Source of the DNA: Escherichia coli O157:H7
Lineage (GTDB): Bacteria > Pseudomonadota > Gammaproteobacteria > Enterobacterales > Enterobacteriaceae
Reading direction: 5' to 3' (one strand)
Assembly (NCBI RefSeq): GCF_013167455.1
Contig: NZ_CP038328.1
DNA: 64,000 nucleotides
Shown one piece after another: positions 25,618 through 28,600 of the stretch (position 1 is its first letter; every line of letters starts with the position of its first letter). The position numbers are program-made.

Positions 25618-28600
25618 TAATCTCATCACTTATGCCCGCACTCCCTTCCCCGAGTGCGGGTGTTTGCGCATAATTGACCCCTGTGCCTGAACTTACCACC
25701 TGGGTGAGTTCAGGTTTATTTCACTTCTTCCGTGACATTTTCATGTTCTTGCGGTCTAACACGAAGTGTTTTTAACGTCATTTAGACTGACCGACAACGG
25801 GCAGTTTTTTTATTACCAGGATAGTTGATCAGGGGTTCACATGCAGGGCACAAAAATTCGACTTTTAGCGGGCGGTTTGCTGATGATGGCCACTGCTGGC
25901 TATGTGCAGGCAGATGCGCTCCAGCCTGATCCAGCATGGCAACAGGGGACGCTTTCCAACGGTTTACAGTGGCAAGTGCTGACCACCCCCCAGCGTCCCA
26001 GCGATCGTGTTGAAATTCGCCTGCTGGTTAATACCGGTTCGCTCGCCGAAAGTACACAACAGAGCGGTTACAGTCACGCCATCCCTCGTATTGCGCTAAC
26101 GCAAAGCGGTGGCCTTGACGCAGCACAGGCGCGTTCATTGTGGCAGCAGGGGATCGACCCTAAACGCCCGATGCCGCCGGTAATTGTCTCTTATGACACC
26201 ACGCTGTTTAATCTGAGTTTGCCCAATAACCGTAACGATTTGCTGAAAGAGGCGCTCTCTTATCTGGCAAATGCCACTGGCAAACTGACTATCACGCCAG
26301 AAACCATCAACCACGCGCTGCAAAGTCAGGACATGGTGGCAACCTGGCCTGCCGATACTAAAGAGGGCTGGTGGCGCTATCGTCTGAAAGGGTCAACCTT
26401 GTTAGGTCACGATCCTGCCGATCCGCTGAAACAACCCGTTGAAGCGGAAAAAATTAAAGATTTCTATCAGAAATGGTACACCCCGGATGCAATGACGCTG
26501 CTGGTGGTGGGAAACGTGGATGCGCGCTCGGTCGTCGACCAAATCAACAAAACGTTTGGCGAACTGAAAGGCAAACGTGAAACACCGGCTCCGGTGCCGA
26601 CGCTTTCTCCGCTGCGTGCGGAAGCGGTGAGTATTATGACTGACGCGGTGCGTCAGGACCGGTTATCTATCATGTGGGATACGCCGTGGCAGCCGATTCG
26701 TGAATCAGCCGCACTGCTGCGCTACTGGCGTGCGGACCTGGCCCGTGAGGCGCTGTTCTGGCATGTTCAGCAAGCGTTAAGCGCCAGTAACAGCAAAGAC
26801 ATCGGTCTTGGATTTGACTGCCGTGTGCTGTATCTGCGTGCGCAGTGTGCCATCAACATCGAATCACCAAACGACAAGCTGAACAGCAACCTTAATCTGG
26901 TGGCGCGTGAACTGGCGAAGGTTCGCGATAAAGGTCTGCCGGAAGAAGAGTTCAATGCGTTAGTGGCGCAAAAGAAACTGGAGCTGCAGAAACTGTTTGC
27001 CGCCTATGCACGGGCTGATACCGATATTCTGATGGGCCAGCGGATGCGTTCGTTGCAAAATCAGGTCGTCGATATCGCGCCGGAGCAGTATCAGAAACTG
27101 CGGCAGGATTTCCTTAACAGCCTGACTGTGGAGATGTTAAATCAGGATCTGCGTCAGCAGTTGTCGAATGATATGGCGTTAATACTGCTGCAGCCGAAAG
27201 GCGAGCCGGAATTTAACATGAAAGCGTTGCAGGCGGCCTGGGATCAAATCATGGCCCCATCTACCGCCGCTGCGACCACCTCTGTCGCCACGGATGACGT
27301 ACATCCTGAAGTGACGGATATTCCACCTGCACAGTAATGCCTGATGGTGATGAGTTAGCACAACCATCAGGTATTTATGGATGAGCTGGATAGAGGGGTA
27401 ACTCTTTATCCAGCCTTTTGCATATGCTGCGTTTACGCTGGCATCGCCTCACGCGGGATAATCGCGCCGCGATACTGAATAACGGTACTTGCGGTCAGGT
27501 GCCCGCGTTTCGCTGCGTTTTCCGCACTGCCGCCCGTCAAACGTACCGCCAGATAACCGGCACTGAAAGAGTCGCCAGCTGCGGTGGTATCGATCACTTT
27601 TTCTTTCGGCAGTTTCACCGCCGGAACATCCACTAACCCTTCGCCAGCAATGGACACCAGGCAAGAATCCGCCCCGCGTTTCACCACCACTTCTTTCACG
27701 CCCGCGTTATGGGTGCGCGCAATGACGTCTTCCACCGGCTGTTGACCCCACAGCGCGTCTTCATCGTCCAGCGTCAGGAAGGCGATATCCGTGCATTCCA
27801 GCATTTGTTGGTACACCTGCTGTGTCTCTTCTTTGCTGGCCCACAGGCGCGGACGATAGTTATTGTCGAAAATCACTTTTCCGCCGTTGGCGCGGCATTC
27901 GCGCAGCAGGGAAAGCAGCTTTTCGCGGCTGGTCGGGCTTAAGATCGCCAGGCTAATCCCGCTCAGGTAGAGATAATCGAAATTCGCCAGCTCTTCGCAA
28001 ATCGCCGCGGATTGATCGCTCTCCAGCCAGAATTTGGCGGCGGCTTCGTTACGCCAGTAGTAGAACGTACGTTCGCCGGTGCTGTCGGTTTCAATGTAGT
28101 AAAGGCCCGGCAGACGGTTTTCCATCCGTTGGGTCAGGGAAGTATCAACGTTCTCGCCGTGCCAGGCGTCCAGCATCTGCTGGCTAAAACTGTCCGTTCC
28201 CAGCGCCGTTACGTAATGAACGGTTAATGCCGCAGGATCGACCTGACGGGCGATATAGACGGAAGTGTTCAGGGTATCGCCGCCGAAACCGCGCTTAACG
28301 TCCGCGCCTTTCTCGGAAAGCTCAATCATGCATTCGCCAATCACGGCAATCTTTTTGGACATAGTCGTGAACCTGATCTGTAAAAAATTAGCGTTAGTTT
28401 GCGCTGTGGTGGTTTGCTGGTCAACCATATTAAAACAGTGTTCCATTATTTTTTTGAGCCAGAACGTATTCCTGAAAGATTCCGTTGTGGAGTGGGGAAA
28501 TTTACCCCGGCCAGGCGGTAAAGTTCTGCCCTTGCGCGCCGATAATCTTTGTCGAGTCCGGGCTGCATCACTTTTAAACACAGGACATCTTTGATGATAA

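Follow-up and report, generated by a model that had tools for sequence, protein, structure and literature searches.

The promoter yhjHp of Escherichia coli K-12, located upstream of the c-di-GMP phosphodiesterase gene pdeH (yhjH), was reportedly described by Ko and Park in 2000 as a FliA (sigma-28) class 3 promoter. In K-12, a FliA ChIP-seq peak with the motif TAAAGTTCTGCCCTTACGCGCCGATAAT was found upstream of yhjH (Fitzgerald et al. 2014, PMC4183435). In the tables of that paper used here, this peak has a FAT score of 67, tied sixth highest among 52 sites, and yhjH RNA drops from 511 to 2 upon deletion of fliA. Its supplements give ChIP-qPCR values of 10.1 versus 0.31, and qRT-PCR values that fall from 1 to 0.027 when fliA is deleted and recover upon complementation. 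Among the sites of its Table 2, only that of tar (0 mismatches) is closer to the sigma-28 consensus than that of yhjH. None of the three mentions of yhjH in the main text concerns binding of FlhDC, and the section on FliA lists yhjH among the FliA sites. An array study measured 9.6-fold lower yhjH expression in a fliA deletion (Zhao et al. 2007, PMC1935009), and a pdeH::gfp fusion has been used as the reporter of FliA activity (Klauck et al. 2018, PMC6119863).

The gene divergent from pdeH, kdgK, belongs to the KDG pathway. The operators of the IclR-family repressor KdgR in the enterobacterial KDG/pectin regulon are said to have been described by Nasser et al. in 1994 and by Rodionov et al. 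in 2000 and 2004. Such operators are AT-rich near-palindromes of 19 bp, with AAAC/GTTT-type half-sites separated by three variable bases. Their consensus, which we take to be AATGAAACANTGTTTCATT, was cross-checked solely against E. coli's own boxes.

The genetic link between KdgR and kdgK is shown by published expression data. Northern blots revealed increased kdgK mRNA upon deletion of kdgR in E. coli (PMC6958661) and, in Salmonella, a kdgK gene that is KDG-inducible and becomes constitutive when kdgR is deleted (PMC4784465). In an RNA-seq compendium, a deletion including kdgR derepressed both kdgK and kdgT (PMC6892915). Another IclR-family regulator, PlaR (YiaJ), has also been connected with this gene, as genomic SELEX lists kdgK as one of its targets (Shimada et al. 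2019, PMC6958661). PlaR has the consensus box ATnTGAAACnnnGTTCAnTT (PMC6958661) and acts primarily on the yiaK operon; its in vivo effect on kdgK is less documented than that of KdgR.

The kdgK-pdeH locus

The locus analyzed here lies in a window of 64 kb (64,000 nucleotides), the whole stretch of E. coli O157:H7 DNA under study. Given the positions of the two start codons, on opposite strands (Table 1), the spacer extends over 28363-28593, i.e., 231 bp, and the gene boundaries are those of the original prediction. An identical O157:H7 locus is present in RefSeq, with the gene order dctA, yhjJ, kdgK (-), pdeH (+), yhjG, yhjE. The 361 bases taken around the two sites match O157:H7-type E. coli genomes at 100%; of 5426 complete E. 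coli genomes, 5416 contain the spacer stretch. The O157:H7 and K-12 spacers differ at three positions (28495, 28534, and 28564), all of them outside both regulatory motifs, with 28534 falling between the two sigma-28 elements.

An Rfam scan of 27000-30000 matched zero RNA families at E ≤ 1, and the spacer is thus considered to be without known sRNA or leader. Between 27800 and 29200, a standard sigma-70 promoter scan returned nothing at threshold, and a terminator scan returned one terminator-like site, located inside pdeH and within chance expectation. Downstream of pdeH, no terminator-like hairpin was found in the gap of ~70 bp separating it from yhjG (29362-29430); yhjG might be partly co-transcribed with pdeH from the FliA promoter.

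Table 1. Features of the kdgK-pdeH locus, with positions in the window.
Feature	Sequence	Position	Strand	Basis and remarks
kdgK CDS (2-dehydro-3-deoxygluconokinase)	start MSKKIAVIGECM	27433-28362	-	309 aa; ATG at 28362; ORF/translation and RefSeq annotation
Candidate sigma-70 -10 of kdgK	CAAACT	28396-28401	-	predicted
Candidate sigma-70 -35 of kdgK	TTGACC	28419-28424	-	predicted; mean conservation 0.97 over 75 distinct spacers
KdgR-type (IclR-family) operator, near-palindrome	ATTAAAACAGTGTTCCATT	28429-28447		predicted; matrix, conservation, genetics; reported common to PlaR/YiaJ
Conserved T-run and GAGCC beside the box	ATTTTTTTGAGCC	28448-28460		conservation profile
Sigma-28 (FliA) -35 element	TAAAGTTC	28519-28526	+	consensus match and published yhjH FliA motif
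Sigma-28 (FliA) -10 element	GCCGATAA	28538-28545	+	invariant in 77/77 species
pdeH transcription start (RegulonDB yhjHp)		28552	+	7 nt past the -10; 42-nt leader; string in supplementary file 5, PMC4183435
pdeH Shine-Dalgarno	AGGA	28582-28585	+	8 nt before ATG; ACAGGA conserved across genera
pdeH (yhjH) CDS, c-di-GMP phosphodiesterase		28594-29361	+	255 aa; ATG at 28594

Conservation across the Enterobacteriaceae

For comparison, 80 pdeH loci were taken from the Enterobacteriaceae, with one genome per species. The sampled genera include Escherichia, Citrobacter, Salmonella, Enterobacter, Leclercia, Lelliottia, Kosakonia, Atlantibacter, Franconibacter, Siccibacter, and Cedecea. In all 77 loci with enough flanking sequence, kdgK is adjacent to pdeH and divergent from it. 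The conservation profile, based on a MAFFT alignment of 75 distinct spacers, contains four conserved blocks. The one closest to kdgK (28363-28376) corresponds to the leader and ribosome-binding site of this gene, and is followed by a block at 28385-28408. The third runs continuously over 28419-28460, and comprises GGTCAAC, the KdgR-type box, and the T-run followed by GAGCC. The last consists of both sigma-28 elements, then the first transcript bases and the ACAGGA ribosome-binding site of pdeH. The segment between the two regulatory modules (28461-28518) is unconserved.

A few loci of the sample deserve individual mention. In Citrobacter amalonaticus S646 (locus L007, positions 2080-2500, NZ_PQMB01000005.1), the spacer is 421 bp long versus ~230, due to an insertion of ~190 bp in the pdeH leader, past the sigma-28 promoter, which is intact, and before the ribosome-binding site; the end of the -10 element is consequently 235 nt away from the pdeH ATG. 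Searches of this insertion found no terminal inverted repeats, and Rfam gave only a sub-threshold match (sX9, E = 0.2). In Enterobacter sp. EA-1 (CP025776.1), tblastn retrieved only KdgK residues 134-234 upstream of pdeH, and this genome may carry a disrupted or frameshifted kdgK. Finally, the record CACSKA010000004.1, titled 'Chryseobacterium sp. 18061', carries an enterobacterial kdgK-pdeH locus, with 87% (KdgK) and 69% (PdeH) identity to the E. coli proteins; this record is probably mislabelled or derived from a mixed assembly.

The sigma-28 promoter of pdeH

Upstream of pdeH and on its strand, the sequence TAAAGTTCTGCCCTTGCGCGCCGATAA (28519-28545), which can be written TAAAGTTC-TGCCCTTGCGC-GCCGATAA, differs by a single mismatch from the sigma-28 consensus TAAAGTTT-N11-GCCGATAA. 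No other site in the 64 kb comes within one mismatch of this consensus, and 100 dinucleotide shuffles yielded no such match. Only one other site of the window, TGAAGTTT-N11-GCTGAAAA (50734-50760, - strand), comes within three mismatches, a level that is expected by chance, as 18 of 100 shuffles gave at least two matches.

In the comparative sample, seven bases of the -35 element (TAAAGTT), in addition to the -10 element, are invariant in 77/77 species; 69 of the 76 spacers tallied have C as the eighth base, and 7 have A. The 11 nt separating the two elements take 56 different sequences over the 77 spacers. From the end of the -10 element to the pdeH ATG there are 48 nt here, and 47-57 nt in 75 spacers out of the 76 tallied. 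Contacted bases that are kept while the sequence between them drifts freely form the pattern expected for a functional sigma-28 promoter. The near-consensus FliA promoter that had been proposed to face pdeH is therefore confirmed, in strand as well as in sequence. Its proposed tie to the flagellar class 3 regulon holds as well, since the FliA ChIP-seq peak, the loss of yhjH RNA in the fliA deletion, and the qPCR data agree in K-12.

Compared with K-12 yhjHp, the promoter occupies the same locus, with identical -35 and -10 elements, the same 11-nt spacing, and the same distance to the ATG. It differs by a G in place of an A at 28534, among the non-contacted bases, along with the two further spacer differences. 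The O157:H7 promoter is an allelic variant of yhjHp, with no apparent functional difference. The start of transcription listed for yhjHp carries the evidence codes HIPP, AIPP, and NTAS, which presumably denote an inferred promoter position, not experimental mapping, so that position 28552 is approximate.

The possibility of a structured pdeH leader was considered and dropped. Folds of single sequences hinted that the 5' end of the leader pairs with the ribosome-binding site; RNAalifold returned zero consensus pairs for 35 diverse leaders.

The KdgR-type operator upstream of kdgK

On the kdgK side of the spacer, ATTAAAACAGTGTTCCATT has three mismatches to the KdgR consensus. No other site in the window comes as close, and 4 of 100 shuffles gave a match of this kind. 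The box was also tested independently of this consensus, with a matrix derived from E. coli boxes. The matrix was symmetrised and built from four K-12 sites, namely the best box upstream of kdgT (AATAAAACAGCGTTTCAAT), the two best upstream of kduI (AATGAAACATTGTTTTATT and AACGAAACAGTGTTTCACT), and the best upstream of tabA/yjgK (AATGAAACGTTGTTTTAAT), kdgK being excluded. The eda gene was also considered as a source; the 400 bp upstream of it gave a weak box (6 mismatches), which was thus left out of the matrix. The kdgK box scores 22.4 bits, versus 24-27.6 bits for the training sites and 11.6 bits for the next best 19-mer of the 64 kb; this score was reached by none of 50 shuffles.

The box is also widely conserved. 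Of the 77 species, 76 have its core, AAAAC-N3-GTT[CT]C, with variation at the three central bases, and the matrix score is at least 15 bits in 62/77. The box lies 66 bp from the kdgK ATG here, and at 64-70 bp in 75 of the 76 core-bearing species. It was expected at exactly 28429-28447, and there it is; nevertheless, as it is a near-palindrome, its description as facing kdgK can only refer to its location on the kdgK side of the spacer.

The kdgK box shares the architecture of the KdgR operators, is likewise placed upstream of a KDG-pathway gene, and resembles the K-12 boxes of kdgT, kduI, and tabA. It differs by its right half-site, which is GTTCC instead of GTTTC, a variant conserved across most genera. 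This half-site fits the PlaR consensus (GTTCA) at least as well as the KdgR type, and, counted from the sequence, the box matches ATnTGAAACnnnGTTCAnTT at 12 of its 16 specified positions. As kdgK is a SELEX target of PlaR and the two sequences are very similar, the box is probably common to KdgR and PlaR/YiaJ. The literature searched yielded neither footprints nor gel shifts for E. coli KdgR at this site, and the binding reported for the region is that of PlaR only; direct contact of KdgR with the box in E. coli is inferred from motif similarity, conservation, and genetics.

Next to the operator, at 28448-28460, seven T are followed by GAGCC, with 87-100% conservation across genera. This element lies outside the 19-bp box as usually written. 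It could possibly be a flank or extension of the operator, or an UP-like upstream A-tract for the kdgK promoter.

A candidate promoter for kdgK

On the kdgK strand of the spacer, the best hexamer pair is TTGACC-N17-CAAACT, with 8/12 matches and a spacing of 17 nt. Upstream of kdgK, TTGAC occurs in 75/77 spacers. The candidate -10 hexamer is itself weak (3/6), with positions 2, 4, and 6 conserved at 97-99%; in other genera, CACACT, CAGACT, CAAAAT, or GAGAAT is found at the same 17-nt distance from TTGAC. Other -10 candidates, TAATAT inside the box and AATAAT, are without a conserved -35 and were ranked lower.

The KdgR-type box is located 4 bp upstream of the candidate -35 element. If this hexamer pair is the promoter, kdgK transcription would start near 28389, and the box would occupy approximately -40 to -58, abutting the -35. 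A repressor box placed upstream of the -35 is a less common arrangement than one overlapping the -10 or the +1.

Proposed regulation and alternative explanations

The most satisfactory explanation, with a probability of roughly 0.93, is that the spacer combines a FliA promoter for pdeH with a KdgR operator for kdgK, as two independent control modules placed back to back. FliA polymerase recognizes TAAAGTTC-N11-GCCGATAA on the + strand and initiates the pdeH mRNA near 28552. Production of the main c-di-GMP phosphodiesterase thus accompanies that of the late (class 3) flagellar genes, and the enzyme maintains a low c-di-GMP level in motile cells. On the other side, KdgR would bind the near-palindrome at 28429-28447, as would probably the related PlaR/YiaJ. 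The bound repressor may hinder the contacts of polymerase with the -35 and the DNA upstream of it, until the inducer 2-keto-3-deoxygluconate releases it from the box.

It could be argued that one or both motifs are chance matches without function, as a three-mismatch match to the KdgR consensus did arise in a few shuffles and loose sigma-28-like sites do occur, such as that at 50734-50760. However, the motifs remain invariant from one genus to the next, unlike their variable flanks and N11, the matrix score of the box is far above the background of the window, and the published binding and expression data agree with both motifs. The probability of this explanation is practically nil, as conservation and published experiments already refute it. 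At pdeH itself, a sigma-70-like pair with 7/12 matches (TAAAGT-N16-GATAAT) overlaps the FliA promoter, and sigma-70 polymerase might also transcribe the gene substantially through these hexamers. This is very improbable given the ~250-fold decrease (511 to 2) in the fliA deletion and the qRT-PCR value of 0.027, both from the tables and supplements of PMC4183435 used here; moreover, a stricter sigma-70 scan gave zero sites.

As regards kdgK, the question is rather which repressor occupies the box. That it is mainly an operator of PlaR rather than of KdgR would be in line with the SELEX data and with the resemblance of the box to ATnTGAAACnnnGTTCAnTT, GTTC right half included (PMC6958661). It is nevertheless unlikely, because the single deletion of kdgR raises kdgK mRNA in E. 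coli (PMC6958661), its deletion renders kdgK constitutive in Salmonella (PMC4784465), and the larger deletion that took in kdgR derepressed kdgK and kdgT (PMC6892915). KdgR alone is therefore required for repression; occupancy by both regulators fits the data, and PlaR in place of KdgR does not. The two modules could also be coupled: FliA-dependent pdeH expression would then be modulated either by KdgR or PlaR, bound ~115 bp ahead of the pdeH start, or by transcription of the divergent kdgK. Such coupling would link plant-derived sugar acids to the c-di-GMP level and motility, and the divergent layout is indeed kept in all 77 spacers, with a gap of 71-73 bp between the box and the sigma-28 -35 in 61/76. 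Yet this gap ranges from 41 to 80 bp overall and 28461-28518 is unconserved, the genes reported as overexpressed upon kdgR deletion do not include pdeH (PMC6892915), and the supplements examined on the flagellar regulon do not list kdgK. For these reasons, the modules are read as independent and coupling as highly improbable. The literature searched contained no relevant paper treating kdgK and pdeH together.

Biological significance

Both regulatory links are already known, as they have been published and figure among the RegulonDB promoters that Fitzgerald et al. reproduce. The published experiments were carried out in E. coli K-12 and, for kdgK, also in Salmonella, in agreement with the original prediction, which had presented the two sites as consistent with known regulation. 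The locus therefore serves as a positive control, in which two regulatory sites read from raw sequence proved to be real and correctly assigned. The present analysis adds cross-genus conservation figures and a conserved sigma-70 candidate for kdgK, with the operator just upstream of its -35. It also points out that PlaR targeting of the kdgK box region has been reported, and direct KdgR binding apparently never. In E. coli, it is through the FliA promoter of pdeH that low c-di-GMP is known to be coupled with the expression of flagellar genes, and the KdgR box is part of the kdg regulon, which has also long been known; this established picture is unchanged.
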